Shown in pieces: positions 8,191-43,617 of a stretch of DNA of 64,000 nt. Position 1 is the stretch's first letter. Every line of letters begins with the position of its first letter. The DNA is from Escherichia phage MRostami-2023e: sequence record OQ031495, one strand, 5' to 3'. A program made the translations under genes and the position numbers. The notes beneath the pieces are model-generated. The model was not told the DNA's origin. It saw only the letters and a list, made by a program, of their open reading frames with translations, and searched no databases.

Positions 8191-8571
8191 NNNNNNNNNN
8201 NNNNNNNNNNNNNNNNNNNNNNNNNNNNNNNNNNNNNNNNNNNNNNNNNNNNNNNNNNNNNNNNNNNNNNNNNNNNNNNNNNNNNNNNNNNNNNNNNNNN
8301 NNNNNNNNNNNNNNNNNNNNNNNNNNNNNNNNNNNNNNNNNNNNNNNNNNNNNNNNNNNNNNNNNNNNNNNNNNNNNNNNNNNNNNNNNNNNNNNNNNNN
8401 NNNNNNNNNNNNNNNNNNNNNNNNNNNNNNNNNNNNNNNNNNNNNNNNNNNNNNNNNNNNNNNNNNNNNNNNNNNNNNNNNNNNNNNNNNNNNNNNNNNN
8501 NNNNNNNNNNNNNNNNNNNNNNNNNNNNNNCAAGTTGAAGAACTTTATCGACATTTAAAACACAATCGGTA

Positions 8572-8601
8572 GTTTACATCTTGGTAGGATTATGTTATAG
8601 T
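8572..8601 (+). promoter_or_regulatory. Early promoter
   Basis: GTTTAC 8572-8577, about 18-bp spacer, TATAGT 8596-8601. Confidence 0.45.
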
Positions 8602-8736
8602 AGTCCTATCAAAACGAACGGAGACCAAAATGAAACTTTTGCTTATCGCTTATGTTGTAGTACAATATAATTATCCGATGTTTACTTATAACATGGTAAA
8701 CGGCATAGTGAATCTTATTGAAACGAGTATGGTAAA

Positions 8737-8916
8737 ATGACCCGTGAACAAGCTAATAAATTGATGGACCTTATCCGTGACTTACGTGAAGCCGATTCAG
8801 ATTTGAATGATGTAGCTTATCATGCGGTAAATGATAACGGAGATTTTTATGAAAATCAGGTTGACGCTTGCCAGAATGCTTTGGTGAATTTTGTTGAAAC
8901 TTTAATTGGTGAATAA
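8737..8916 (+). CDS. Hypothetical small protein
   Basis: 59-aa ORF MTREQANKLMDLIRDLREADSD...; not in the track (below 60 aa). Confidence 0.35.
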   Translation: MTREQANKLMDLIRDLREADSDLNDVAYHAVNDNGDFYENQVDACQNALVNFVETLIGE

Positions 8917-8917
8917 T

Positions 8918-9448
8918 ATGAAAACTGTAATTGAAACAACCGAGTTGTTTGGCGATTTATGTATCGAAAAACGTGGTTATGCTTACGTTCTGACACAAGA
9001 AGATGATGCTGTTACTATTCTTCCTATGGAACTGGACAAGATTTTGAAACTCAATCCGCCCGGCCATGCATCTGTAATTAACATTGATGAAGACCTTCAA
9101 GTTCGTTTTTATCACGGTCTTTATAGTGGGGTTAATATCGAAACAGAAGATGAATGCCTTTCTATCAATAATTGGAAAACATTCGTCACTAAGGTGAAAG
9201 AATTCATAGAATCTGAAACTGCCAAAAAGGCCAAACTTCAATGGGCTAAATGCCGTAATGCTTTTATTACAAATCAGGACCGCCCTGACTATACAACAGT
9301 CCTAGGCGTTAATCCTTCTTATGAAGACGGTGATGTCGTAGTTATTCGCCAAATTGATGACCTTCGTCAACATATCATTACATTAGACAAAGATGAGGCA
9401 GTTGCTCTTAAAGCTTATCTCGATTCTATTATCCCAACTTTGAAATAA
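8918..9448 (+). CDS. Hypothetical protein
   Basis: 176-aa ORF (MKTVIETTELFGD...); start right after upstream stop. Confidence 0.5.
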   Translation: MKTVIETTELFGDLCIEKRGYAYVLTQEDDAVTILPMELDKILKLNPPGHASVINIDEDLQVRFYHGLYSGVNIETEDECLSINNWKTFVTKVKEFIESETAKKAKLQWAKCRNAFITNQDRPDYTTVLGVNPSYEDGDVVVIRQIDDLRQHIITLDKDEAVALKAYLDSIIPTLK

Positions 9449-9457
9449 GGAATTATT

Positions 9458-9931
9458 ATGATTATCAATGAAAACTCTTGGCACTTTAAACTTTATGCAG
9501 CGTTCAATAGTACATGGAATCGCCCGAAAACATTATGTGCTTATTTTTGGAAAACGTTAATCCCAGTATTGGCTGTTTCAATTATTGGATTTGCGATTTT
9601 AGCAGCAGTCACAATTATTGGCCAGGAAATTTTAACTAGATTCTTTGTTTTTAGCAGTCTATGGACATTAGTTCCGGCCTCAATTGGCGTAGGCATTTTA
9701 ATGGTAGCAGTCATGGCTTTTATTTCTGTAGGGTTGGTAATTGGCCCGTCTTGGTTGTTAGACAAATATAACGACAGAAAATATTATAAAGAAATTGAGT
9801 TCATTGCACAAAACCAAGAACGAATTAAAAATGGACTTGAACCTATTGAACGTAAGAAATCATTAATAGGTGAATACCTTAAAGCTCGTAAAGAAAAAGT
9901 CTGTCCTACTCTTGAATATAAGGCTAAATGA
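9458..9931 (+). CDS. Hypothetical membrane protein
   Basis: Two long hydrophobic segments; SD AAGGAA upstream. Confidence 0.5.
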   Translation: MIINENSWHFKLYAAFNSTWNRPKTLCAYFWKTLIPVLAVSIIGFAILAAVTIIGQEILTRFFVFSSLWTLVPASIGVGILMVAVMAFISVGLVIGPSWLLDKYNDRKYYKEIEFIAQNQERIKNGLEPIERKKSLIGEYLKARKEKVCPTLEYKAK

Positions 9932-10917
9932 TGAAAACAATTATGAAAGGCTACTTTGGTAGTCACCTTTATGGAACGTCCACTCCTGAATCTGACGTCG
10001 ATTTTAAAGAAATTTATGTCCCTCATGCTCGTGATATCTTGACCGGTAACGTTAAAGAACACATGAGCAAGAACACGAATAACACATCTTCTAAGAACAC
10101 AAAAGACGACGTGGACCATGAGTTGTATAGTCTCAAATATTTCTTTAAACTAGCTGCGGATGGTGAAACTGTCGCATTAGATATGCTTCACACTCCACCA
10201 AGCCTAGTAGTTAAATCTGATTTGCCTGATGTATGGAAGTATATTCAAGATAACAGGTCTCGTTTCTATACCACTAACATGAAATCTTATTTAGGGTATG
10301 TCCGTAAGCAAGCTTCTAAATACGGTGTCAAGGGTTCTCGACTGGCTATTCTTCGACAAGCCCTTAAACGTTCTAATGAATGGGGACAATACTTTGATAA
10401 TGGTGCAGTAATTCGTTTATCACATATGAAGAATGTTCTGCCTGTAGGTGAATTTGCTTCGTGGGTTGAAACCGAAAACGAGAAAACAGGTAAGCAAACA
10501 TTCTATAATCTGTTGGACCGTAAATTCCAAGACACGTTAACCAATAAAGAGTTCAATGCCATCCTGGTTAAACTGGAAGAGAACTACGGTGAACGTGCTC
10601 GTAAGGCAGAAGCTAACGAAGGTATTGACTGGAAAGCATTGAGTCATGCGTGTCGTGGTGGACTTCAATTATTGGAAATTTACAAAACCGGCGACCTGGT
10701 TTACCCACTTCAGGATGCTCCATTTATTCTCGATGTTAAGCTTGGTAAACATACGTTTAAAACTGTACAAGAATTCCTAGAAGATATCGTTGACCAAGTT
10801 GAACATGCATCGGAACAAGCCGCTAAGAACGGTATGCAACAAAAAGTAGATATGAGTTTCTGGGATGATTTCCTTGAGCAAGTCTATCTCGAAAATCATA
10901 ATTCTTACTATAAATAA
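9928..10917 (+). CDS. Pol-beta-superfamily nucleotidyltransferase-like protein
   Basis: GSHLYGTSTPESDVDF fits the GS-x9-13-DxD nucleotidyltransferase signature; 329 aa. Confidence 0.5.
   Translation: MMKTIMKGYFGSHLYGTSTPESDVDFKEIYVPHARDILTGNVKEHMSKNTNNTSSKNTKDDVDHELYSLKYFFKLAADGETVALDMLHTPPSLVVKSDLPDVWKYIQDNRSRFYTTNMKSYLGYVRKQASKYGVKGSRLAILRQALKRSNEWGQYFDNGAVIRLSHMKNVLPVGEFASWVETENEKTGKQTFYNLLDRKFQDTLTNKEFNAILVKLEENYGERARKAEANEGIDWKALSHACRGGLQLLEIYKTGDLVYPLQDAPFILDVKLGKHTFKTVQEFLEDIVDQVEHASEQAAKNGMQQKVDMSFWDDFLEQVYLENHNSYYK
10909..10916 (+). promoter_or_regulatory. Candidate late promoter (TATAAATA)
   Basis: Exact TATAAATA overlapping the upstream stop, about 33 nt before the 10949 start. 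Confidence 0.35.
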
Positions 10918-18670: not shown

Positions 18671-19144
18671 ATGTTATTATCAGGCGCAAAATATAAAGAA
18701 GAAAAACAAAAATTTTATGATGCACAGAACGGTAAGTGTCCTATTTGCCACCGTGAATTAGACCCTGATGTTCAAGGTAACCATCTTGACCACGACCATG
18801 AATTAAACGGGCCAAAAGCCGGTAGAGTTCGTGGATTACTCTGTAATCTGTGCAACGCAGCAGAAGGTCAAATGAAGCATAAGTTCAACCGTTCTGGTCT
18901 TAAAGGCCGTGATGTCGACTACCTAGAATGGCTTGAAGCTCTTCTCGCTTATTTGAAACAAGATTATTCTGATAATAATATCCATCCTAATTTTGTTCCA
19001 GACAAAACTAAAGAGTTCTCAAGACTAGGTAAAGAGGAAATGATGACCGAGATGCTTCAAAGAGGATTTGAATATAATGAATCAGATACTAAAACACAAT
19101 TAATAGCTTCATTCAAAAAGCAGCTTAGAAAGAGTTTAAAATGA
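18671..19144 (+). CDS. 49: Endonuclease VII (Holliday-junction resolvase)
   Basis: MLLSGAKYKEEKQKFYDAQNGKCPICHREL...HLDHDHELNGPKAGRVRGLLCNLCNAAEGQ... near-identical to T4 gp49. Confidence 0.92.
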   Translation: MLLSGAKYKEEKQKFYDAQNGKCPICHRELDPDVQGNHLDHDHELNGPKAGRVRGLLCNLCNAAEGQMKHKFNRSGLKGRDVDYLEWLEALLAYLKQDYSDNNIHPNFVPDKTKEFSRLGKEEMMTEMLQRGFEYNESDTKTQLIASFKKQLRKSLK

Positions 19145-20958
19145 AAATTGAAAAAGAAATTGAAGGATTAATTCATAAAACTAATAAAGACCTTTTAAAC
19201 GAGAATGCTAATAAAGATTCTCGTGTTTTTCCAACTCAACGGGACCTTATGGCTGGTATTGTGTCTAAGCACATTGCCAAAAATATGGTCCCGTCTTTTA
19301 TTATGAATGCGCATGAAAGCGGAATCATTCACATGCATGATATTGATTATTCTCCTGCTCTTCCATTTACTAATTGCTGTTTAGTCGATTTAAAGGGGAT
19401 GCTTGAGAATGGATTTAAATTAGGCAATGCTCAAATTGAAACGCCTAAATCTATTGGCGTTGCTACTGCAATTATGGCACAAATTACCGCACAAGTTGCT
19501 TCACACCAATATGGCGGAACTACATTTGCGAATGTCGATAAAGTTCTTTCTCCTTATGTTAAACGCACATACGCTAAACATATTGAGGACGCAGAAAAAT
19601 GGCAAATCGCTGATGCGTTGAATTATGCCCAATCTAAAACAGAAAAAGACGTATACGATGCATTCCAAGCTTATGAATATGAAGTAAATACTCTCTTTAG
19701 TTCAAACGGACAGACTCCTTTTGTAACAATTACATTTGGTACAGGAACCGACTGGACTGAACGAATGATTCAGAAAGCAATTCTTAAAAACCGCATTAAA
19801 GGCCTTGGTCGTGATGGAATAACTCCTATTTTCCCTAAGCTTGTTATGTTCGTTGAAGAAGGTGTTAATCTTTATAAAGACGATCCGAACTATGATATTA
19901 AGCAGCTTGCTTTAGAATGTGCAAGCAAAAGAATGTATCCTGACATCATTTCGGCTAAGAACAATAAAGCTATCACCGGCTCATCTATTCCTGTTTCTCC
20001 AATGGGTTGCCGTAGTTTCTTGAGCGTATGGAAAGATTCAACTGGCAATGAAATTCTTGATGGACGCAATAATCTTGGCGTTGTAACACTGAATCTTCCT
20101 CGTATTGCGTTAGATTCTTATATTGGAACACAATTCAATGAACAGAAATTTGCCGAATTGTTCAATGAACGAATGGACCTGTGTTTTGAAGCTTTGATGT
20201 GTAGAATTAGTTCCTTAAAAGGAGTTAAAGCGACTGTTGCTCCTATTCTTTACCAAGAAGGTGCATTTGGGGTTCGTCTTAAACCTGACGACGATATAAT
20301 TGAGTTATTTAAAAACGGTAGAAGTTCAGTGTCTTTAGGATACATCGGTATTCATGAATTGAATATTCTTGTCGGCCGTGATATTGGACAAGAAATTTTA
20401 ACTAAAATGAATGCTCATCTTAAACAGTGGACTGAAAGAACCGGTTTTGCTTTTAGCTTGTATTCTACTCCTGCTGAAAACCTGTGCTATCGCTTCTGTA
20501 AACTTGATACTGAAAAATATGGAAGTGTAAAAGATGTTACTGATAAAGGCTGGTACACTAACAGTTTCCATGTTTCAGTAGAAGAAAATATTACTCCGTT
20601 TGAAAAGATTTATCGCGAAGCCCCATATCATTTCATTTCGNNNNNNNNNNNNNNNNNNNNNNNNNNNNNNNNNNNNNNNNNNNNNNNNNNNNNNNNNNNN
20701 NNNNNNNNNNNNNNNNNNNNNNNNNNNNNNNNNNNNNNNNNNNNNNNNNNNNNNNNNNNNNNNNNNNNNNNNNNNNNNNNNNNNNNNNNNNNNNNNNNNN
20801 NNNNNNNNNNNNNATTTGTTTGTTCTATGTGTGGAGAAACTGATCCTAAAAAGATGAACACAATAAGAAGAACGTGTGGTTATCTTGGAAACCCGAACGA
20901 ACGCGGATTTAATCTAGGCAAAAATAAAGAAATCATGCATAGGGTTAAACACCAATGA
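19141..20958 (+). CDS. nrdD: Anaerobic ribonucleoside-triphosphate reductase (class III; 173 nt masked inside)
   Basis: 605 aa; NCCLVDLKGML and C-terminal RRTCGYLG glycyl-radical motif with zinc-ribbon cysteines. Confidence 0.9.
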   Translation: MKIEKEIEGLIHKTNKDLLNENANKDSRVFPTQRDLMAGIVSKHIAKNMVPSFIMNAHESGIIHMHDIDYSPALPFTNCCLVDLKGMLENGFKLGNAQIETPKSIGVATAIMAQITAQVASHQYGGTTFANVDKVLSPYVKRTYAKHIEDAEKWQIADALNYAQSKTEKDVYDAFQAYEYEVNTLFSSNGQTPFVTITFGTGTDWTERMIQKAILKNRIKGLGRDGITPIFPKLVMFVEEGVNLYKDDPNYDIKQLALECASKRMYPDIISAKNNKAITGSSIPVSPMGCRSFLSVWKDSTGNEILDGRNNLGVVTLNLPRIALDSYIGTQFNEQKFAELFNERMDLCFEALMCRISSLKGVKATVAPILYQEGAFGVRLKPDDDIIELFKNGRSSVSLGYIGIHELNILVGRDIGQEILTKMNAHLKQWTERTGFAFSLYSTPAENLCYRFCKLDTEKYGSVKDVTDKGWYTNSFHVSVEENITPFEKIYREAPYHFISXXXXXXXXXXXXXXXXXXXXXXXXXXXXXXXXXXXXXXXXXXXXXXXXXXXXXXXXXXFVCSMCGETDPKKMNTIRRTCGYLGNPNERGFNLGKNKEIMHRVKHQ

Positions 20959-33044: not shown

Positions 33045-35756
33045 ATGAAAGAATTTTACTTAACGGTTGAACAGATTGGTGATTCAATTTTTGAACGTTA
33101 CATCGATTCTAATGGCCGTGAACGTACTCGTGAAGTAGAATATAAACCATCACTGTTTGCTCATTGTCCAGAAAGTCAGGCTACGAAATATTTCGATATC
33201 TACGGTAAGCCGTGTACTCGTAAGTTGTTCGCCAATATGCGTGATGCCTCCCAATGGATTAAACGCATGGAAGATATCGGACTTGAAGCACTTGGCATGG
33301 ACGATTTCAAATTGGCGTATTTGTCTGACACTTATAACTATGAAATCAAATACGACCATACAAAAATTCGTGTGGCTAACTTCGACATCGAAGTAACATC
33401 TCCGGATGGGTTCCCTGAGCCTTCACAAGCAAAACATCCTATTGATGCTATCACCCATTATGACTCAATTGACGACAGGTTCTACGTATTTGATCTATTG
33501 AATTCTCCATATGGTAATGTAGAAGAATGGTCTATTGAAATCGCTGCTAAGCTTCAAGAACAAGGCGGTGATGAAGTTCCATCTGAAATTATCGATAAAA
33601 TCATTTATATGCCGTTCGATAACGAAAAAGAATTGTTGATGGAATATCTCAACTTCTGGCAACAGAAAACTCCTGTCATTTTGACTGGATGGAACGTTGA
33701 GTCATTTGATATTCCATATGTGTATAACAGAATCAAGAATATTTTTGGCGAATCTACTGCGAAACGGTTGTCACCACATCGTAAAACTCGTGTTAAAGTT
33801 ATCGAAAACATGTATGGTTCTCGTGAAATCATTACATTGTTCGGTATCTCTGTTCTTGATTACATTGACCTTTACAAAAAATTCTCTTTCACAAACCAAC
33901 CGTCGTATTCTCTGGATTACATTTCAGAATTTGAATTGAACGTTGGTAAACTGAAATATGACGGCCCTATTTCTAAGCTTCGTGAAAGCAATCACCAACG
34001 ATATATTTCTTATAACATTATCGACGTGTATCGTGTATTGCAAATTGATGCTAAGCGTCAGTTCATCAACTTGAGTTTAGACATGGGTTATTATGCTAAG
34101 ATACAGATTCAATCTGTGTTTAGCCCAATTAAAACATGGGATGCTATTATTTTTAATAGCCTTAAAGAGCAGAACAAGGTGATTCCACAAGGTCGTTCGC
34201 ATCCAGTTCAACCTTACCCGGGTGCTTTTGTTAAGGAACCTATTCCAAATCGATACAAATATGTAATGAGTTTCGACCTTACATCTCTGTATCCAAGTAT
34301 TATTCGCCAAGTGAATATTAGCCCAGAAACAATAGCAGGAACGTTTAAAGTAGCTCCATTGCATGATTATATTAACGCTGTTGCTGAACGTCCTTCAGAT
34401 GTGTACAGTTGCTCTCCTAACGGCATGATGTATTATAAAGACCGTGACGGTGTAGTTCCAACTGAAATCACTAAGGTCTTTAATCAACGTAAAGAACATA
34501 AAGGTTACATGCTTGCAGCTCAACGTAATGGTGAAATAATTAAAGAGGCATTGCATAATCCTAATCTTTCTGTTGACGAACCATTAGATGTTGATTATCG
34601 TTTCGACTTCAGCGATGAGATTAAAGAAAAGATTAAAAAGTTGTCTGCTAAATCTCTTAATGAAATGTTGTTTAGAGCTCAACGTACTGAAGTTGCAGGT
34701 ATGACTGCCCAAATTAACCGTAAATTGCTTATCAACTCACTTTATGGTGCACTTGGAAACGTTTGGTTCCGTTATTACGATTTGCGTAATGCAACTGCAA
34801 TCACAACATTTGGTCAAATGGCTTTACAGTGGATTGAACGTAAAGTTAATGAATATCTGAATGAAGTTTGTGGTACAGAAGGTGAAGCTTTCGTTCTTTA
34901 TGGTGATACAGACTCTATTTACGTATCTGCTGATAAAATTATCGATAAGGTTGGTGAATCTAAATTCCGTGATACTAACCATTGGGTAGACTTCTTAGAT
35001 AAGTTTGCACGTGAACGTATGGAACCAGCTATTGATAGAGGTTTCCGTGAAATGTGTGAATACATGAACAATAAACAACACTTAATGTTCATGGACCGAG
35101 AAGCTATCGCTGGTCCTCCACTCGGTTCTAAAGGTATTGGTGGATTCTGGACTGGTAAGAAACGTTATGCATTAAACGTGTGGGATATGGAAGGTACTCG
35201 TTACGCTGAGCCTAAACTCAAAATCATGGGTCTAGAGACTCAGAAATCTTCGACCCCTAAAGCAGTACAGAAAGCTCTTAAAGAATGTATTCGTCGTATG
35301 CTTCAAGAAGGTGAAGAATCATTACAAGAATATTTTAAAGAGTTTGAAAAAGAATTCCGTCAATTGAATTATATTAGCATCGCGTCGGTATCTTCTGCGA
35401 ATAACATTGCTAAATATGACGTCGGTGGATTCCCTGGTCCCAAATGCCCGTTCCATATTCGTGGAATTCTGACGTATAACCGGGCTATCAAAGGTAATAT
35501 CGATGCGCCGCAAGTTGTAGAAGGTGAAAAAGTATATGTTCTGCCTTTACGTGAAGGAAACCCATTCGGTGATAAATGTATCGCATGGCCTTCTGGTACT
35601 GAAATCACAGATTTAATTAAAGACGACGTACTTCATTGGATGGACTACACTGTTCTCCTTGAGAAGACATTTATTAAACCACTTGAAGGATTCACATCAG
35701 CAGCGAAACTCGATTACGAGAAGAAAGCATCTCTGTTCGATATGTTCGATTTTTGA
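33045..35756 (+). CDS. 43: DNA polymerase gp43 (family B)
   Basis: 903 aa; exonuclease FDIE, polymerase motifs SLYPSII and YGDTDS. Confidence 0.95.
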   Translation: MKEFYLTVEQIGDSIFERYIDSNGRERTREVEYKPSLFAHCPESQATKYFDIYGKPCTRKLFANMRDASQWIKRMEDIGLEALGMDDFKLAYLSDTYNYEIKYDHTKIRVANFDIEVTSPDGFPEPSQAKHPIDAITHYDSIDDRFYVFDLLNSPYGNVEEWSIEIAAKLQEQGGDEVPSEIIDKIIYMPFDNEKELLMEYLNFWQQKTPVILTGWNVESFDIPYVYNRIKNIFGESTAKRLSPHRKTRVKVIENMYGSREIITLFGISVLDYIDLYKKFSFTNQPSYSLDYISEFELNVGKLKYDGPISKLRESNHQRYISYNIIDVYRVLQIDAKRQFINLSLDMGYYAKIQIQSVFSPIKTWDAIIFNSLKEQNKVIPQGRSHPVQPYPGAFVKEPIPNRYKYVMSFDLTSLYPSIIRQVNISPETIAGTFKVAPLHDYINAVAERPSDVYSCSPNGMMYYKDRDGVVPTEITKVFNQRKEHKGYMLAAQRNGEIIKEALHNPNLSVDEPLDVDYRFDFSDEIKEKIKKLSAKSLNEMLFRAQRTEVAGMTAQINRKLLINSLYGALGNVWFRYYDLRNATAITTFGQMALQWIERKVNEYLNEVCGTEGEAFVLYGDTDSIYVSADKIIDKVGESKFRDTNHWVDFLDKFARERMEPAIDRGFREMCEYMNNKQHLMFMDREAIAGPPLGSKGIGGFWTGKKRYALNVWDMEGTRYAEPKLKIMGLETQKSSTPKAVQKALKECIRRMLQEGEESLQEYFKEFEKEFRQLNYISIASVSSANNIAKYDVGGFPGPKCPFHIRGILTYNRAIKGNIDAPQVVEGEKVYVLPLREGNPFGDKCIAWPSGTEITDLIKDDVLHWMDYTVLLEKTFIKPLEGFTSAAKLDYEKKASLFDMFDF

Positions 35757-35796
35757 TATAATGCCATGGACGGTAAACTAATTAAATGAGAGAAAT

Positions 35797-36432
35797 ATGA
35801 AAACTACTCCTATTACTATCGCTATTGACGCAATCATAAAACAAGCTTCTTCTTTGGCCGCTATGGCCAAAGTAATTAGTCAAAACCCTGCTCGTTATAA
35901 TGCTATTCTAGAAACTCTTCGACGCCCTGGACTTAGTAATTATGAAAGCCGAGTAATTATTACAGGTGTTGGTAAGAATGCTAATATTGCAACTAAAGCG
36001 TCTGAGACATTTGCTTCACTCGGTATCCCGAGTATGTACTTGAACACTGGGCATTATTCTCACGGTGATGCAGGATTTATTGCGCCTAATGATGTGTTGA
36101 TTCATATTAGTCGTTCTGGTAAAACTGAAGAAATGATAGGCGTGGCTAAGCATCTTAAAATGATTCGCCCGAACGTCAAACAGATTCTGTTGCATTGTAA
36201 CCCAGACATTCCACAAGAATACGAAGCCCTTTTTGATTACTCTTTCTGTACAGGCATCGCGGTAGAAGTTGATGAGAATTCTCTGGCTCCGACTATGTCC
36301 ACTACATTGTTGTTAGCGCTTATCGATACGTTTGCTATCAACCTTTCGTCTGAACGTGGATTTACCTCTAATGACTTCCTTAAGTTCCACCCTGGCGGTG
36401 CACTAGGTGCCATGTTACGAGGCGAACAATGA
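35797..36432 (+). CDS. SIS-domain sugar-phosphate isomerase, KdsD/GutQ-like (putative D-arabinose-5-phosphate isomerase)
   Basis: VIITGVGKNANIA...GHYSHGDAG...HISRSGKTEE...LAPTMSTTLLLAL...HPGGALG align with the KdsD SIS domain as recalled; no CBS domains. Confidence 0.75.
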   Translation: MKTTPITIAIDAIIKQASSLAAMAKVISQNPARYNAILETLRRPGLSNYESRVIITGVGKNANIATKASETFASLGIPSMYLNTGHYSHGDAGFIAPNDVLIHISRSGKTEEMIGVAKHLKMIRPNVKQILLHCNPDIPQEYEALFDYSFCTGIAVEVDENSLAPTMSTTLLLALIDTFAINLSSERGFTSNDFLKFHPGGALGAMLRGEQ

Positions 36433-36572
36433 AAGCAATAACAATAGGACTTTTACTATTGATGCTTGTCATGACTATCTACTGGAGCTTAACGGCTCCA
36501 GTAATGATTCCAACACTTGTAATTGGATGGATTATGATTGGACTACAAGCAAAGTATGAATGCTTTAACTAG
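36429..36572 (+). CDS. Small hydrophobic protein
   Basis: 47-aa ORF with two hydrophobic stretches; below track cutoff. Confidence 0.3.
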   Translation: MKAITIGLLLLMLVMTIYWSLTAPVMIPTLVIGWIMIGLQAKYECFN

Positions 36573-36613
36573 AATAGTGTACAATACTCCTACTTACCAA
36601 TGAGGACCACAAC

Positions 36614-38299
36614 ATGAAAAAAGCTGTTATTCTTGGTGCTGGACTGGCAACTCGTTTGTATCCAATAACGCATCATATTCCTAAGGTGCTTGTTAACTAT
36701 AAACAAGACACTATTCTGAGCAATTTGTATACAATTTATTCTGACCTTGGCGCAGATGAAATTATTGTAGTAGTTCATTCAAAATTTGCTGAAACTGTTC
36801 GAGCTTATTGTGAGCAAGAAGGGTTCAATGTGACTATTCGTACAGTTGATGAAGCGTATGGTTCTGCTTATGCTCTTGCTAAATTACACAAAGATTTAGA
36901 CGGCCATAATGTAATTGTTAACTGGTGTGATATTATTCCGGATTTTGGTTCATGGTCTTGGAATGTTAACGCAATCTATGTTAAGGGTGACGAATGTCGA
37001 TATAATTTCGACGGTGAAAATATCACTAACGTAGGTTCAACAGGTGGTAATGTTGTAGGAATTTATCAGTTCAAAGACTGGGAATTCTATATGGGTTCTA
37101 CCGATGAGGAAATTCATGAATACTGCAAAGGACGTGATTTCGTAGAATTCCTTTACGGCAGCGCATTCAATAAATCAGAGCTTATGAATCTAATTGATTT
37201 AGGTGATATGCCTAAACTTGAAAAAGCTCATGAAGTTCGTGAACTTAATCGTAGTTTTAATGCAGTTGAAATTGGTGAAGAAACTGTAACTAAATTCGCA
37301 TTAACCGAACAGGGTCGAGCTCTTCAGAAAGATGAGATTTCATGGTATCTTAAAGTGAAATCAGATTCAGTTCCTCAGTTAGTTTCTGTTAATGAAAATA
37401 ACTTTGAAATGGAACGCATTAAAGGTAAGCCGGCATTTGAATATATTAAATCAAAATCAAGTCTTGCTCGTCCACAAATTATTGATGCAATTTTAGATGC
37501 ACTGAAATTCAGCACAGACACTTATTTTGTAAGTCCTGAAACTGTTCGCCGTGATTTCACTAAAGAATTCTATACGAAAGTTATTGATCGTTGTGAAAGT
37601 ATTCAACCATTGATTGATTCATTTGGTAAAATCACACATGTGAACTACACTAAGATTGGGCGTCTGAAGCCAATGTTGAAACAAGCTTTAGAACATCTTA
37701 TTCGTTATCATAACCGTTCTCAGGGACAGTACTCTGTTATTCACGGTGACCCGAACTTCAGTAATACTATGATTACTGATAACGGCGAAGTCAAGTTTAT
37801 CGACCCTCGTGGATATTTTGGCGAAACCAAGATTTACGGGCCAAAATTGTATGATGAAGCTAAAGTGCTTTATGCTGTTTCAGGTTATGATGAATTCAAT
37901 GCTAATCCGGCCTGGGGACAGTTTACTATTGATGAAACAACTTGTAATGTGACTATTAACATCAATCCATTAGTTTACAAATATGGAAAGATGAGTTCGT
38001 TTAACGAGTATCATCATTTGGCAGTGGCAATTATCTGGATTGCATTAGGTGGTTATTTCAAGAATAATCCACTTAAAGCGGTTGCCGCATATTATAAAGG
38101 TATGGAACTTCTGACTAAGCAATTACGTAACATGGGCCGTGTACTTCAAGACGGCTCTATTAGTTATGACGTAGCAGAACCTGTAACGGCTACTCTGATT
38201 ACAAAAAATCCGGGTAAATGGGTACTAACTGATAAAGAAACTGGTGTTTCCTATCGTCCAATCGGTGGCGATATCACTCATCAATGGGAACGAATCTAA
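36614..38299 (+). CDS. Bifunctional sugar-1-phosphate nucleotidyltransferase / sugar kinase
   Basis: N-terminal AVILGAGLATRL nucleotidyltransferase signature; C-terminal VIHGDPNFSN and VKFIDPRG kinase motifs (APH/choline-kinase type). Confidence 0.7.
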   Translation: MKKAVILGAGLATRLYPITHHIPKVLVNYKQDTILSNLYTIYSDLGADEIIVVVHSKFAETVRAYCEQEGFNVTIRTVDEAYGSAYALAKLHKDLDGHNVIVNWCDIIPDFGSWSWNVNAIYVKGDECRYNFDGENITNVGSTGGNVVGIYQFKDWEFYMGSTDEEIHEYCKGRDFVEFLYGSAFNKSELMNLIDLGDMPKLEKAHEVRELNRSFNAVEIGEETVTKFALTEQGRALQKDEISWYLKVKSDSVPQLVSVNENNFEMERIKGKPAFEYIKSKSSLARPQIIDAILDALKFSTDTYFVSPETVRRDFTKEFYTKVIDRCESIQPLIDSFGKITHVNYTKIGRLKPMLKQALEHLIRYHNRSQGQYSVIHGDPNFSNTMITDNGEVKFIDPRGYFGETKIYGPKLYDEAKVLYAVSGYDEFNANPAWGQFTIDETTCNVTININPLVYKYGKMSSFNEYHHLAVAIIWIALGGYFKNNPLKAVAAYYKGMELLTKQLRNMGRVLQDGSISYDVAEPVTATLITKNPGKWVLTDKETGVSYRPIGGDITHQWERI

Positions 38300-38685
38300 T
38301 GCACCGTGTAGAAAACATGCTTAATCTTTATTTTGATGTCGATGATTGTATAACAGAGTGGAATAACAATCGTGATTACGTGAACTTCAAGCCAGACGTC
38401 GAAATGGTGTCTGCCATTAATGCCCTGTATGATGCAGGGCATACCATAACGCTTTACACTGCTCGCGGTATGAAGTCAGTAGGTCCTGGACGTATAGCAA
38501 TTGACATTCTCCCAAGTCTGATTCAGAACTTGGCAAACATTGGCTTGAAGTACCATAATTTGCTAACACATAAACCAGTATATGATTGGATTATCGACGA
38601 CAAAGCTATGCGTCCTGACGAATTCAAAGCTCTTATGAATAAAGGCGAATTCGAAACATTTAAATCATATAAACCGAATCTATAA
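38299..38685 (+). CDS. Small HAD-like phosphatase (KdsC-like)
   Basis: LYFDVDDCITEW (DxD motif I), ITLYTARG (motif II), HKP...WIIDDKA (K and DD motifs); 128 aa. Confidence 0.5.
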   Translation: MHRVENMLNLYFDVDDCITEWNNNRDYVNFKPDVEMVSAINALYDAGHTITLYTARGMKSVGPGRIAIDILPSLIQNLANIGLKYHNLLTHKPVYDWIIDDKAMRPDEFKALMNKGEFETFKSYKPNL

Positions 38686-38742
38686 TAATTTAAGTAAGAC
38701 CTGCAAAAACCATCGCATCAATTAACGTGAGATGCAAAAAAA

Positions 38743-39903
38743 ATGAATACTTTTAAAATCGGAACGAATTTTGATTTAGCTCTTCTTGATAAAATCGTAG
38801 AGCTCAATAAAACTTATCCTAATAGCTTGATAAACGAAGTATACGGCTCTACAAGAGAAATGGCTTTTGTAGCAGCCAGACCTGATTTTAGGCTTCCTGA
38901 CGTTGACAAAAAGATGTTAGAAGATTACGTTAAACGTTGTAACGAATTAGGTATTTGCTTTAACTATACACTCAACACGATAAATCCGGGTTCAAAAAGA
39001 GAACTAGTTGAGTGGAAGAAGAAAGCTATTCAGGACTATGTTCAGTATCTTTGGTCAATAGGCGTATGGCGTATTACTATCGCTAACCCTGTTGTTATGG
39101 AAATTGTTCGTGAAGTCAATAAAGACATTGAGATTGAAGTTTCAACAATTCTACATGTCGATGCTGTAACTCAAATCAAATACTTGCATGACCAGTATAA
39201 TATCAAAAAGGTCTGCTGTGGAATTCATAAGAACCGTTCAGTTTCTTTCCTGAAGCGTGCAGCAGAGTTTTGCAATAAGAACAATATAATATTTGAAGTT
39301 CTTGTAAATGAGTTCTGTTCTAATGCTGGTAAAGGGTATACAACACATTGTAGCTATCGTGACTCTTGCTATATTTTCCATAGTACTGATGTTACAGCTG
39401 ATGATGCTAAATCCTTAAATGGATATCCTATGCAGCACTGTATTAAAGCTCGTGATACAGACCCATTTAACTGGTTGAGAACTCGTTTTGTTCGTCCACA
39501 AGATTTGAAACTTTATAATGATATTGGTATCACTCAATTTAAAGTTTCGGGACGTACAGGTAGCACAGACTACATTTTGAAAGTTCTTGAAGCATACGCT
39601 TCTGAAAAGTTTGAAGGTAATTTGTTAGAATTGTGGAAGCCTTTAGAGACCATTTTCACTCTTGAAAATGAGACCGAGTTTTCACATACGGTAAATATTG
39701 AAACCTCTTTGTTAGATGGCTTTTTAGAAAAAAGGTGGTTCAGACATCCAGATTTCGATTGTGCTAATGAAATCTGCGGGACGACGTGTACATATTGTGA
39801 AAGATATTATAAACGTCAGTTATCTAAAAACGGGTTAGCAGAAAACTCTATATCTATTATTGATATAACTAACTCTGATGACGCTTTGAGGTACCCGGAA
39901 TGA
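38743..39903 (+). CDS. Cys-rich hypothetical protein (possible U32-like Fe-S fold)
   Basis: 386 aa; EVLVNEFCSNAGKGYTTHCSYRDSC and C-terminal CANEICGTTCTYC clusters. Confidence 0.5.
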   Translation: MNTFKIGTNFDLALLDKIVELNKTYPNSLINEVYGSTREMAFVAARPDFRLPDVDKKMLEDYVKRCNELGICFNYTLNTINPGSKRELVEWKKKAIQDYVQYLWSIGVWRITIANPVVMEIVREVNKDIEIEVSTILHVDAVTQIKYLHDQYNIKKVCCGIHKNRSVSFLKRAAEFCNKNNIIFEVLVNEFCSNAGKGYTTHCSYRDSCYIFHSTDVTADDAKSLNGYPMQHCIKARDTDPFNWLRTRFVRPQDLKLYNDIGITQFKVSGRTGSTDYILKVLEAYASEKFEGNLLELWKPLETIFTLENETEFSHTVNIETSLLDGFLEKRWFRHPDFDCANEICGTTCTYCERYYKRQLSKNGLAENSISIIDITNSDDALRYPE

Positions 39904-40139
39904 TTTCTAGAAAAACTTTTAATTATAATCTTAACGAAGAGATTTTGACTATTAAACTGAACACTAACGAACAAATTCTTAAAAAGGCCCTTATGGGCCT
40001 GTTTGAAACCAAAGCGGCTAAAGTGATTAAAGAACCTGTTCAATTGGAATACTACACTGATGCATTCCTTCATAGTGTTCTTGGAAGTATAGATTCTGAA
40101 GCTTTACGTTATATCAACATTGCCAAGAAATTCAAATAA
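39900..40139 (+). CDS. Hypothetical protein
   Basis: 79-aa ORF. Confidence 0.45.
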   Translation: MISRKTFNYNLNEEILTIKLNTNEQILKKALMGLFETKAAKVIKEPVQLEYYTDAFLHSVLGSIDSEALRYINIAKKFK

Positions 40140-40180
40140 GCTTTATGAATTGAGTATATAATAACTGTATTGAGGTAAAC

Positions 40181-40897
40181 ATGGGAAAACATAACACAAT
40201 GAAATATATCAAAGCCGCAGATTTTCAAACCGCATTTAAAGCAGTCAATCGTGAAATTTTAGAAAACCCGGAATTCGTAACTGATTCTCGTATTGGACGT
40301 TGTAATGAAATTGGGTCTATGACAGTAGTTGTTGACACTCCATCATCATTCAAAATGACCGACCCACGTATTAACCGCATCTCTTATGAATATGCCGAAG
40401 ACTTCTGGAAGTTTATGATTTCTGGTGGTACTGATGCAGAAGAAGCGTTTAAGGCATATCCTAATGTCGCTAAATTTATTTCTAAACCTAAATCAGACGC
40501 TTTGCCTGCAAACTTCAACACTTTCTACGGTCCTCGCATTGCGGCCCAATTACCGGCTCTTCTAAAAGAACTTAAAGAGAAGCCTAACTCTCGAAGAGTT
40601 GTGTTCCAAATTCTAGAAAGTTCTGATCAGGCTTTGCTTGATTCGGACGAAACGCTTGAATATCCATGTACTGACTCAGTGACTTATTATATTCGCGATG
40701 GTAAGCTTTATACCCACTGTCATATGCGTTCTCAGAACTGTGCTGTTGTTATGCAGTTGGATTTTTATCTCCAAGGAAAATTACTTCATTATATCGCTAA
40801 CGAATGTGGTGTAGAAGTTGGTGATTATACTCATACCATGGTAAGTGCCCATGTGTTTGAACGTGATTTTGATTATGTTAAAGGGTTTCTTGACTAA
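40181..40897 (+). CDS. 42: dCMP hydroxymethylase (thymidylate-synthase fold)
   Basis: TS-like core with nucleophile Cys in YPCTDSVTYY and RSQNCAVVMQLDF carrying Asp at the pyrimidine-specificity position; T4 gene 42 position. Confidence 0.7.
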   Translation: MGKHNTMKYIKAADFQTAFKAVNREILENPEFVTDSRIGRCNEIGSMTVVVDTPSSFKMTDPRINRISYEYAEDFWKFMISGGTDAEEAFKAYPNVAKFISKPKSDALPANFNTFYGPRIAAQLPALLKELKEKPNSRRVVFQILESSDQALLDSDETLEYPCTDSVTYYIRDGKLYTHCHMRSQNCAVVMQLDFYLQGKLLHYIANECGVEVGDYTHTMVSAHVFERDFDYVKGFLD

Positions 40898-41796
40898 TGG
40901 CTATTTTCCGCGTACCTATTTTGAGTATGCGGTCTTATGAAACTGGACAGTATGCTATCCTTAAGGATGGCAACTTCCAACTTCATTTGCACCGTGCTAA
41001 TCCAGGCGATGTGATTACATATCCACGTAATGCATCTGATATTAAAGAATGTGAACGTCTTTTCCCAGAATTTAAGTTTGTTCCATTATGGTATAAAGAT
41101 AACGCGTATAACACTCGTAAATATTTCTGGTCTGAAAATGAATTTGTGGTTGATTCATTAATTGCTTATTATGATTGTGATTTTCTAATCACAGATATCA
41201 CTGGATATGATGGCGCTTTTGACGTAGAATTCAATTTCAATATCACTGCAGACCCTAATAAACCACGTTTTTATATTGACGAATTCTTAAAAACCGACAT
41301 GTTGTCGGTTAATCGTTCACTTCAAACTACTGTGTTGAATGAACGTCAAAAAGAAGTGCTGGTTAACGCAGGTGCAGATGGTAATAAGATTATCGTAACG
41401 CAGAAAGTTATACGTCCTTCCGTCATGCAGCGTCTTGTAGGTGATTTGGCTCCTATTCATCTAGATGGTATTTTTCATCCATTTCGAATTAGTGACCCAT
41501 GCTATCGTTTTGAACAAGTTGTTGAATGCGCAATTCAATTAGGTCAACCGCTTTATATAACTGATCCAAATAATAGTTTCGACAGAAATAAGTATCCTGA
41601 AGAAGCGCTGATTCGAATTTTTAATCCAACTAAAACTGAGTACTATCAAATTCTTAAAGGACGTCCGAAGATTCAATATTTCGAAAATCCTGAAGAAGTA
41701 TTCCATCCAGGTCTTGGTGAGTTCATCTACTTTAACGCTTTAATTTCTTCGCCGTATAATATACCTAAATACGAAGATGTCGTAATCGAGGAATAA
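40897..41796 (+). CDS. Hypothetical protein at the T4 beta-glucosyltransferase position
   Basis: 299-aa ORF, no resemblance to T4 Bgt by eye. Confidence 0.5.
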   Translation: MAIFRVPILSMRSYETGQYAILKDGNFQLHLHRANPGDVITYPRNASDIKECERLFPEFKFVPLWYKDNAYNTRKYFWSENEFVVDSLIAYYDCDFLITDITGYDGAFDVEFNFNITADPNKPRFYIDEFLKTDMLSVNRSLQTTVLNERQKEVLVNAGADGNKIIVTQKVIRPSVMQRLVGDLAPIHLDGIFHPFRISDPCYRFEQVVECAIQLGQPLYITDPNNSFDRNKYPEEALIRIFNPTKTEYYQILKGRPKIQYFENPEEVFHPGLGEFIYFNALISSPYNIPKYEDVVIEE

Positions 41797-41797
41797 A

Positions 41798-42346
41798 ATG
41801 GCTAAAATTATTTTAGTAGATGGCCCAGATAATGCTGGTAAAACAACTTTCATTAATGACATAATGGAAATTAGTGAAAGATATGTAAAGATTGATTTCC
41901 CTAAACGAACAGTTGATGGACGTTTCGATGTTAAGTCTCGAAATGAAGTTGGCTGTTTCGAAACGATGTTGAATTATTTAGACCCTACTAAGATTTATCT
42001 GTTAGACCGTGGATATATTAGTAACTGGGTTTATGGACGTATTCGACAAGATGCGGATTCGGTTCTTGACGTTTATGAACAGGATTATATTCGTCTTTGC
42101 CAAAACCATGATGTGTTCACAATTATTTTAACACGTAACGAAATGACTGAAAGTTTTGAAGACGACCTTATTACTTTGTCTTCATTCGGTTTTAATACAG
42201 TCATTTCACATTTTGAAGAGTTTGCAATTCATAACAAAATCCAAACGTATCAATTACTTAATCATGATGGTGCTAACAAAGTTATAGGATTTAATGCAAG
42301 CGAACGTAATGATTTGATTACAGAAATCATCAAATGGGCTCGTTAA
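41798..42346 (+). CDS. P-loop kinase-like protein
   Basis: ILVDGPDNAGKTT Walker A near N-terminus, 182 aa. Confidence 0.5.
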   Translation: MAKIILVDGPDNAGKTTFINDIMEISERYVKIDFPKRTVDGRFDVKSRNEVGCFETMLNYLDPTKIYLLDRGYISNWVYGRIRQDADSVLDVYEQDYIRLCQNHDVFTIILTRNEMTESFEDDLITLSSFGFNTVISHFEEFAIHNKIQTYQLLNHDGANKVIGFNASERNDLITEIIKWAR

Positions 42347-42444
42347 GAGCCATTTAAAGTTTTAAATGCTGTATAACCATTAGTATATAATCGTCTTATC
42401 TTTTAAACATGAGTAAAATATAATGATGCCTATGGAAAAATACA

Positions 42445-43617
42445 ATGTCTGATTTAAAATCTCGTCTGATTAAAGCTTCTACTTCTAAAATGACTGCAGA
42501 CTTGACTAAGTCTAAGCTGTTTAATAATCGTGATGAAGTCCCTACTCGTATTCCGATGTTGAATATCGCACTAGGTGGTGCTCTGAATGCAGGATTGCAA
42601 TCAGGCTTGACTATTTTTGCTGCTCCTTCTAAACACTTTAAAACGTTGTTTGGGCTGACTATGGTCGCAGCGTATATGAAGAAATATAAAGATGCAATCT
42701 GTTTGTTTTATGACTCAGAATTCGGTGCTTCAGAATCTTATTTTCGTTCAATGGGTGTTGATTTAGACCGTGTAGTTCATACTCCGATTCAATCTGTCGA
42801 ACAACTTAAAGTTGATATGACTAATCAGCTTGACGCGATTGAACGCGGTGATAAAGTTATTATCTTTATCGATTCAATTGGTAATACTGCATCTAAGAAA
42901 GAAACCGAAGATGCGTTGAACGAGAAAGTTGTAGGTGATATGTCTCGTGCTAAGGCACTTAAATCTCTTTTCCGTATTGTGACTCCTTATCTGACTATTA
43001 AAGATATTCCGTGTGTTGCAATCAACCATACAGCAATGGAAATCGGCGGACTATATCCTAAAGAGATTATGGGTGGCGGTACAGGTATTCTTTACTCTGC
43101 TAACACTGTATTCTTTATCTCTAAACGTCAGGTTAAAGAAGGTACAGAATTGACCGGTTATGACTTCACGTTGAAAGCAGAAAAATCTCGTACAGTTAAA
43201 GAGAAATCTACTTTCCCGATCACGGTTAATTTTGATGGCGGTATTGATCCATTCAGTGGCTTGTTAGAAATGGCAACTGAAATTGGTTTTGTAGTTAAGC
43301 CTAAAGCTGGTTGGTATGCTCGTGAATTCCTTGACGAAGAAACAGGTGAAATGATTCGTGAAGAGAAATCGTGGCGTGCTAAAGCTACTGATTGTGTAGA
43401 ATTCTGGGGTCCGTTGTTTAAACACAAACCTTTCCGAGATGCAATTGAAACTAAATATAAACTAGGTGCTATCTCTTCTATTAAAGAAGTTGATGACGCT
43501 GTTAATGACCTTATTAATTGCAAAGCAACAACTAAAGTTCCTGTTAAAACTTCTGATGCTCCGTCTGCAGCAGATATAGAAAACGACCTTGACGAAATGG
43601 AAGATTTCGATGAATAA
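42445..43617 (+). CDS. uvsX: Recombinase UvsX (RecA-like)
   Basis: MSDLKSRLIKAS...IPMLNIALGG...FAAPSKHFKT...; 390 aa, matches T4 UvsX. Confidence 0.95.
   Translation: MSDLKSRLIKASTSKMTADLTKSKLFNNRDEVPTRIPMLNIALGGALNAGLQSGLTIFAAPSKHFKTLFGLTMVAAYMKKYKDAICLFYDSEFGASESYFRSMGVDLDRVVHTPIQSVEQLKVDMTNQLDAIERGDKVIIFIDSIGNTASKKETEDALNEKVVGDMSRAKALKSLFRIVTPYLTIKDIPCVAINHTAMEIGGLYPKEIMGGGTGILYSANTVFFISKRQVKEGTELTGYDFTLKAEKSRTVKEKSTFPITVNFDGGIDPFSGLLEMATEIGFVVKPKAGWYAREFLDEETGEMIREEKSWRAKATDCVEFWGPLFKHKPFRDAIETKYKLGAISSIKEVDDAVNDLINCKATTKVPVKTSDAPSAADIENDLDEMEDFDE

Follow-up and report, generated by a model that had tools for sequence, protein, structure and literature searches.

In Escherichia coli, formation of 5-hydroxycytidine in 23S rRNA requires the U32-family protein RlhA, which itself depends on prephenate and on iron-sulfur (Fe-S) biogenesis (PMC5727448). 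TrhP, a U32 protein relying on prephenate, and TrhO, which uses O2, provide redundant routes to 5-hydroxyuridine, a dual arrangement argued to be of use to organisms that encounter both oxic and anoxic conditions (PMC6599085). In a further U32 pair, UbiU and UbiV, prephenate has been proven to donate the oxygen (PMC10990095). In phage RB69, the DNA carries arabinosylated 5-hydroxycytosine (5hoC), not hydroxymethylcytosine, and gp48 is a flavin-binding 5-hydroxy-dCMP synthase whose oxygen derives from O2, as determined by 18O2 labelling (PMC13326640). The present analysis concerns a 386-residue U32 protein, the ortholog of RB69 gp50 (99.5% identity), which is encoded in a modification cassette of Escherichia phage MRostami-2023e (record OQ031495), of which a stretch of 64,000 nucleotides, hereafter the window, was analysed. 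The source phage is T4-like and falls in the RB69 group, and its 6.7-kb cassette is 100% identical to that of Escherichia phage vB_EQ1 and 98% identical to that of RB69. The protein is very likely a U32 Fe-S enzyme, and it probably hydroxylates the base for the 5hoC pathway, as an O2-independent cytosine C5 hydroxylase serving DNA hypermodification.

Family, fold and cysteine motifs

The gene and the two cysteine motifs of its product are placed in the window as follows.

38743..39903, + strand: U32-family gene (386 amino acids, ATG start), a divergent member of the family and ortholog of RB69 gp50 (RB69p050)
39316..39441, + strand: cysteine motif 1 (C192, C203, C209, C233; CX10CX5CX23C), in the U32 core, a proposed [4Fe-4S] site
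39760..39798, + strand: cysteine motif 2 (C340, C345, C349, C352; CX4CX3CX2C), in the C-terminal extension, a proposed second metal or Fe-S site

A first-pass annotation, made from the sequence alone, had tentatively assigned this open reading frame (ORF) to the U32 family, and profile and structure searches bear this out. Pfam Peptidase_U32 (PF01136) matched residues 94-286 at 42.2 bits (gathering score 22.4, E 7.3e-11), the match spanning profile positions 2-192 of 233. The predicted structure (predicted local distance difference test, pLDDT, 90.2) has the U32 TIM-barrel fold with the U32 protein Mk0906 as best structural match, and the protein aligns to the U32 hallmark 'FKIEGR' and to the Cys-motif segments. 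A sequence-profile search of the Protein Data Bank (PDB) gave nothing real, its one match, to BIM1, being spurious. The family corresponds to PHROG 5757, and a tblastn search against 50,697 phage records returned 221 matches, each with at least 80% identity, and no weaker match in T4 or any other phage, in keeping with the earlier remark that T4 has no counterpart. None of the Pfam and NCBIfam thymidylate synthase (TS) family models matched the protein, and the fold differs too; it can only be a functional analogue of the TS-type 5-hydroxy-dCMP synthases.

The first-pass annotation had singled out two cysteine-containing segments, EVLVNEFCSNAGKGYTTHCSYRDSC (residues 185-209) and CANEICGTTCTYC (residues 340-352), of this protein, which has 13 cysteines in all. 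Among 121 homologs reaching down to about 48% identity, C158, C192, C203, C209, C233, C340, C345, C349 and C352 are invariant, and C177 is conserved in 98%. In 62 members taken from retrieved loci, C209 is present in 59/62 and the other seven motif cysteines in 62/62, with C158 and C177 absent from the most divergent members. Such conservation of the motif cysteines is far beyond chance. C209 aligns with C176 of RlhA, a canonical U32 motif cysteine (PMC6747719), and motif 2 lies outside the Pfam U32 match. Since the four cysteines of the U32 domain in canonical U32 proteins bind a [4Fe-4S] cluster in the same region as motif 1, and the UbiU-UbiV unit holds two [4Fe-4S] clusters (PMC6747719), the presence of two Fe-S clusters in a single chain of the phage protein may reasonably be predicted. 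Radical SAM identity, the other affiliation that had been raised, was rejected, as no Radical_SAM Pfam match was obtained at E<=1 and the CX3CX2C-like arrangement of C345, C349 and C352 is situated at the extreme C-terminus, outside the barrel.

Proposed reaction and the modification cassette

It is proposed that gp50 would function as a compact two-cluster Fe-S U32 enzyme converting dCMP to 5-hydroxy-dCMP without O2. Its oxygen donor would be prephenate, as proposed for RlhA, TrhP and UbiU/V, with phenylpyruvate and CO2 as products, and the two clusters would pass two electrons to an acceptor. The 5-hydroxy-dCMP so formed would join the route followed by the gp48 product through kinase, polymerase and arabinosyltransferase. 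Because O2 supplies the oxygen in the gp48 reaction, gp48 is expected not to work under strictly anoxic conditions; gp50 may be the anaerobic counterpart of this flavin- and O2-dependent synthase, encoded two genes downstream, and with both enzymes the phage could replace all its cytosine by arabinosyl-5-hydroxycytosine, whether in the anoxic gut or in air. This pairing may be likened to the aerobic and anaerobic ribonucleotide reductases of T4-like phages.

The cassette is located between the DNA polymerase and UvsX genes, and the genes around the U32 gene are listed below.

35797..36432, + strand: arabinose-5-phosphate isomerase (SIS domain; RB69 gp55 ortholog), from family matches and PMC13326640
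36614..38299, + strand: bifunctional nucleotidyltransferase/kinase of 561 amino acids (AfhE-like; RB69 gp52:53), from family matches and PMC13326640
38284..38685, + strand: HAD-type phosphatase (AfhF-like; RB69 gp51), directly upstream of the U32 gene, from NCBIfam TIGR01689 and PMC13326640
39900..40139, + strand: 79-amino-acid ORF (RB69 ORF049-like; PHROG 8601, unknown function)
40181..40897, + strand: TS homolog, RB69 gp48 ortholog (Pfam Thymidylat_synt; function from PMC13326640)
40897..41796, + strand: glycosyltransferase of 299 amino acids, ortholog of RB69 gp46:47 'arabinosyltransferase 1' (PHROG 3891; PMC13326640 Table 1)
41798..42346, + strand: thymidylate-kinase-like (TMPK-like) nucleotide kinase, RB69 gp45 ortholog (PHROG 761; PMC13326640 Table 1)

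The U32 gene had been described as standing between a sugar pathway and a dCMP hydroxymethylase. Its position was correctly read, as it follows the HAD-type phosphatase and precedes the TS homolog by two genes, but the latter is not a dCMP hydroxymethylase: it is 99-100% identical to Mosigvirus orthologs and corresponds to the 5-hydroxy-dCMP synthase of RB69 (PMC13326640). Mislabelling of cassette genes is systematic in public records, where the 5-hydroxy-dCMP synthase appears as 'thymidylate synthase' or 'dCMP hydroxymethylase', the U32 gene as 'peptidase' or 'collagenase', the HAD phosphatase as 'phosphoheptose isomerase' and the nucleotidyltransferase/kinase as 'GlmU'. The nucleotidyltransferase/kinase and the glycosyltransferase are single intact ORFs in the window and are both split in the RB69 reference (ORF052/053 and ORF046/047, respectively), which agrees with the report that the RB69 splits are sequencing errors (PMC13326640). 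A promoter and terminator scan of 35600-42500 gave a number of sites not above that in shuffled sequence. The anaerobic ribonucleotide reductase NrdD (19141-20958, + strand; Pfam NRDD 488.5 bits, with a glycine-radical domain) is encoded in the window as well, about 18 kb upstream of these genes, and is preceded by a 157-amino-acid ORF (18671-19144, + strand) that is endonuclease VII, not NrdG.

Linkage to chorismate mutase

Three sets of loci were compared: 15 T4-like loci, 47 distant loci in which the U32 protein is 30-55% identical, and 46 viral loci with a 5-hydroxy-dCMP synthase. The end of the U32 gene in Enterobacter phage Entb_45 is overlapped by an ORF that encodes a chorismate mutase (Pfam CM_2, 40.9 bits, cut-off 27), and a chorismate mutase follows the U32 gene in five lineages in total, namely Entb_45, a Klebsiella phage, Pectobacterium phage PM2, Yersinia phage TG1 and Shewanella phage Thanatos-2 (33-41 bits against the same cut-off); in Thanatos-2, the U32 and chorismate mutase genes have been relocated together within the cluster. 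This chorismate mutase is found in 51 phage records, every one of them a T4-like phage with U32, and among the 46 viral synthase loci the gene is found in 13/15 of those with U32 and 0/31 of those without. On the viral contig L046, an ORF (8332-9384) located two genes upstream of U32 joins a DAHP synthase to a chorismate mutase at the C-terminus (Pfam 84.8 and 86.1 bits); comparable ORFs of 320-351 amino acids are present in L042, L044 and L045, where the chorismate mutase part was labelled by the local profile alone. The gene order on these viral contigs is SIS, nucleotidyltransferase/kinase, in some cases a kinase, DAHP synthase-chorismate mutase, HAD-like and U32. The fusion resembles an auxiliary gene by which the phage would drive host carbon through the shikimate pathway to prephenate.

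In related phages, the slot of the 79-amino-acid ORF holds, or is shared with, the chorismate mutase. The ORF is translationally coupled to the U32 gene, with an ATGA overlap and a GAGG Shine-Dalgarno sequence within the U32 3' end, and has no Pfam or NCBIfam family match. Homologs of 57-65 amino acids follow U32 in Pectobacterium phage PM2 (L010:5155-5325) and Yersinia phage TG1 (L011:5197-5391), and these share with it the pattern LFxK..Y[FY]xDAFxHS..G.I..E..R[HY]IN; the ORF family occurs in 5/15 T4-like loci and in no distant locus. That the ORF is a diverged chorismate mutase was rejected, since it has no Pfam, NCBIfam or BLAST similarity to one and both PM2 and TG1 possess the two as distinct genes. 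Its single-sequence AlphaFold2 model was uninformative (pLDDT 53.8). The ORF may encode an accessory factor of the U32 enzyme.

Distribution and cluster classes

The loci fall into three classes. Class A, with a TS-type synthase, glycosyltransferase and kinase but no U32, comprises Acinetobacter phages (57 records with a synthase, the class A layout being checked in DLP3 and Ac42-type loci), Dhakaviruses such as VR5, and environmental contigs. Class B combines U32, TS homolog, glycosyltransferase and kinase and is represented by 15/15 T4-like loci, from phages of Enterobacterales and Shewanella. In class C, formed by the 47 distant loci, the U32 gene is accompanied by a glycosyltransferase in 28, a TMPK-like kinase in 24, a nucleotidyltransferase/kinase in 19, a HAD-like gene in 19, an isomerase in 11 and a chorismate mutase in nine. 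A TS homolog of the 5-hydroxy-dCMP synthase type was found in 0/47 distant loci within the area searched (+-10 kb plus a pattern-based contig scan only), and 0/32 distant U32 viral contigs were among the contigs bearing a synthase relative. The one TS-family gene near a distant U32, in L033, was set aside because it looks like an ordinary ThyA, with 138 bits to E. coli ThyA versus 28-42 for 5-hydroxy-dCMP synthases. Six class C loci consist of minimal triads of kinase, glycosyltransferase and U32 without sugar-activation genes, mirroring the class A triad of TS homolog, glycosyltransferase and kinase. Other class C neighbours, including dCMP deaminase, dUTPase, 5'-deoxynucleotidases, DnaE and SSB, belong to nucleotide-pool and replication metabolism. 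Class C copies are also present in cellular genomes of Erysipelotrichales, Oscillospiraceae, Romboutsia, Clostridium, Tannerella, Phocaeicola and Gastranaerophilaceae.

Several loci depart from these layouts. In L001 (7447-9939 of a 466-kb contig) and L004 (7504-9826, 60-kb contig), the order is TMPK, UDG, DnaE, dCMP deaminase, U32 and a 250-amino-acid protein of unknown function, with no glycosyltransferase within +-8 kb of U32; as dCMP deaminase adjoins U32 in both, dUMP, and not dCMP, is a possible substrate of some clade members, with 5-hydroxyuracil as the outcome. L002 (13227-14360) and likewise L065 encode a second, far more divergent U32-like paralog (377 amino acids, 106 bits to the family profile) that lacks C158, C177 and C209 and adjoins a radical SAM/SPASM protein and a nucleoside 2-deoxyribosyltransferase-like gene, with the first U32 copy, NT5C, an NMN transporter and dNK close by; this neighbourhood may represent a different nucleoside-modification module. 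In L041, an IS605 OrfB/TnpB-type gene (8689-9948; Cas12f1-like TNB, OrfB_IS605 and HTH domains) has been inserted directly upstream of U32 in a viral modification cluster. In L008 and L018 (Klebsiella phages of the Clarke_MM3 and Marfa type), the TMPK-like kinase has been displaced to a position immediately ahead of U32, U32 abuts the TS homolog, and the clusters are devoid of the arabinose-5-phosphate isomerase, chorismate mutase and small ORF.

Weighing the proposed function

A role of gp50 in hydroxylating the base is the probable one, and dCMP, rather than DNA or dUMP, is tentatively proposed as its exact substrate. U32 membership, fold, cysteine motifs and gene neighbourhoods are observed; Fe-S binding, use of prephenate, hydroxylation and the substrate are predictions. 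A number of observations weigh against the hydroxylase assignment. The spacing of the core cysteines, CX10CX5CX23C, differs from the canonical U32 spacing CX6CX15CX3/4C, from which UbiU and UbiV also depart (PMC6747719). Similarity to the characterised proteins is weak: the protein family profile scored E. coli TrhP, RlhA, UbiU and UbiV at 13 bits or less, the NCBIfam UbiU equivalog gave 18.5 bits with a cut-off of 440, and the NCBIfam search returned no match to an RlhA or TrhP model. Because of these low scores, and because the profile picks up only 1,671 of 1.84 billion proteins (459 clusters at E<=1e-30), the family is, on sequence grounds, a distinct U32 clade or separate subfamily whose function would be assigned by analogy, not orthology. 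In vitro hydroxylase activity has not yet been demonstrated for any U32 protein (PMC10990095). In the source Mosigvirus no chorismate mutase adjoins U32, and prephenate would have to come from the host. The synthase occurs without U32 in about 40 Escherichia phage records, the Dhakaviruses VR5 and JS98 among them; since their host is a facultative anaerobe of the gut, the need for U32 is not universal. To these are added the limited scope of the synthase search around distant loci and the inference that the hosts of class C cellular copies are mostly strict anaerobes, their habitat having been deduced from 12 genome titles. No paper found by full-text searching of the accessible literature links a phage U32 protein to a prephenate or hydroxycytosine role, two relevant papers from 2025-2026 being outside reach; the Thanatos paper modelled TH1_065 and left its function unassigned.

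Because U32 also adjoins sugar-activation genes, gene context by itself does not fully distinguish action on the base from action on the sugar, such as modification of arabinose-phosphate or of an NDP-sugar before transfer. The U32 gene in the window directly follows the isomerase, nucleotidyltransferase/kinase and phosphatase genes, the 19 distant loci with a nucleotidyltransferase/kinase beside U32 show the same association, and the one published label located for gp50, against which a hydroxylase role by analogy has to be set, is 'Sugar or heterocycle reductase', given once with a fold match to PDB 5d88 (PMC13326640 Table 1). A sugar role is nevertheless unlikely. RB69, with U32, and DLP3, without it, have the same arabinose on 5-hydroxycytosine, the number of arabinose units being the one difference, and the proposed sugar pathway needs no contribution from gp50 to be complete (PMC13326640). 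As both phages share sugar and base, gp50 would add redundancy and no unique chemical step. The six kinase-glycosyltransferase-U32 triads dispense with sugar activation altogether, the chorismate mutase linkage has no rationale for a sugar reductase, and no sugar reductase is included among the characterised U32 enzymes.

Hydroxylation of cytosine after replication, on DNA instead of free dCMP, is judged improbable to a marginally greater degree. The two characterised U32 enzymes directed at nucleobases, RlhA and TrhP, act on RNA polymers, and the phage gene is often found beside the replication genes for DnaE and SSB. Against this, complete replacement of cytosine in RB69 goes via the nucleotide pool (PMC13326640), and the gene travels with a TMPK-like kinase, dCMP deaminase, dUTPase and 5'-nucleotidases, which serve nucleotide-pool metabolism. 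The protein is also compact (about 360-386 amino acids), and since Pfam detects only the U32 core, no recognisable nucleic-acid-binding domain is present.

T4-like phages encode tRNAs, and an RNA hydroxylase of the TrhP or RlhA type, of the same superfamily, might modify phage or host tRNA or rRNA and tune translation during infection. This is very unlikely for a protein that fails the UbiU equivalog model, matches RlhA and TrhP weakly, is found only inside DNA-modification clusters (with glycosyltransferase and kinase in 15/15 T4-like loci), and is absent from T4 and other T4-like phages without the 5hoC pathway. A peptidase or collagenase-like protease, as the GenBank and PHROG labels 'peptidase' and 'collagenase-like protease' would have it, is extremely unlikely, the label being inherited from the family name, the genetically characterised U32 proteins cited here all being Fe-S-dependent hydroxylation factors, the invariant residues being eight cysteines in two motifs of metal-binding type, the neighbourhood being one of nucleotide and DNA-modification metabolism, and the cited U32 literature (PMC6747719, PMC5727448) defining no protease active site.

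Implications

Beyond the single gene, the U32 clade may constitute a class, unrecognised until now, of viral enzymes that hydroxylate C5 of pyrimidines in DNA precursors without O2, as a backup in T4-like phages of the gut and as the sole hydroxylase in many phages of strict anaerobes (the 459 clusters above), a generalisation that is put forward with some reserve. If true, glycosylated 5-hydroxypyrimidine DNA would be widespread in phages of anaerobes, many of them uncultured, and the replication of 5-hydroxycytosine phages in the anoxic gut would be explained, the sole known synthase needing O2. Hydroxylation through prephenate and U32 would extend from quinones and RNA to DNA precursors and viruses, and the hypermodified DNA would have a bearing on escape from restriction and CRISPR, on phage therapy and on artefacts in sequencing. 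Being compact, consisting of one chain and acting on a soluble nucleotide, the enzyme would, moreover, offer the first tractable in vitro system for a U32 hydroxylase. The analysis also corrects the widespread public labels of the U32 gene and of its TS-like neighbour.

Comparison with known systems

The proposed product of gp50 is that of the flavin-dependent 5-hydroxy-dCMP synthases RB69 gp48, DLP3 gp80 and the HY126 homolog, and the glycosyltransferase and kinase partners are the same. The enzymes themselves differ, gp48 being an experimentally proven enzyme with a TS fold that uses flavin and O2, and gp50 a U32 TIM barrel with predicted Fe-S and probably prephenate dependence. The sole solved U32 structure recovered, Mk0906 (PDB 5d88), has 14% identity and no assigned function, and its chain of 247 residues does not cover the phage C-terminal extension with the second cysteine motif.

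Among the cellular U32 proteins, RlhA, the E. coli 23S rRNA 5-hydroxycytidine-2501 synthase (YdcP), belongs to the same superfamily and shares the proposed hydroxylation at cytosine C5; it also has conserved C-terminal cysteines in addition to the U32-core motif (PMC5727448). However, RlhA has 653 amino acids and acts on a ribosomal precursor, whereas the phage protein, at 386 amino acids, is without a recognisable RNA-binding extension and would act on a DNA precursor. The core cysteines are arranged as CX6CX15CX3C in RlhA, in place of the phage spacing, and sequence similarity is marginal. UbiU-UbiV likewise combine U32 Fe-S proteins, a prephenate donor and two [4Fe-4S] clusters per unit, and serve as a backup for O2-dependent flavin monooxygenases (PMC6747719, PMC10990095). 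They form a heterodimer with one cluster per subunit, act on a lipid substrate and are helped by UbiT, whereas both cysteine motifs of the phage protein reside in one chain.

A parallel in logic is provided by TrhP and TrhO, in which a prephenate-dependent U32 route and an unrelated O2-dependent route lead to the same 5-hydroxypyrimidine, anaerobes keeping the U32 route alone and organisms of dual habitat having both (PMC6599085), a pattern that would be mirrored by phage classes C, B and A. The O2-dependent partner is a flavin-dependent TS homolog in the phages and a rhodanese in the case of TrhO. The substrate would be a nucleotide destined for DNA in the phage system and is tRNA for TrhP and TrhO, and the phage system is encoded by viruses, many of which bring their own chorismate mutase.

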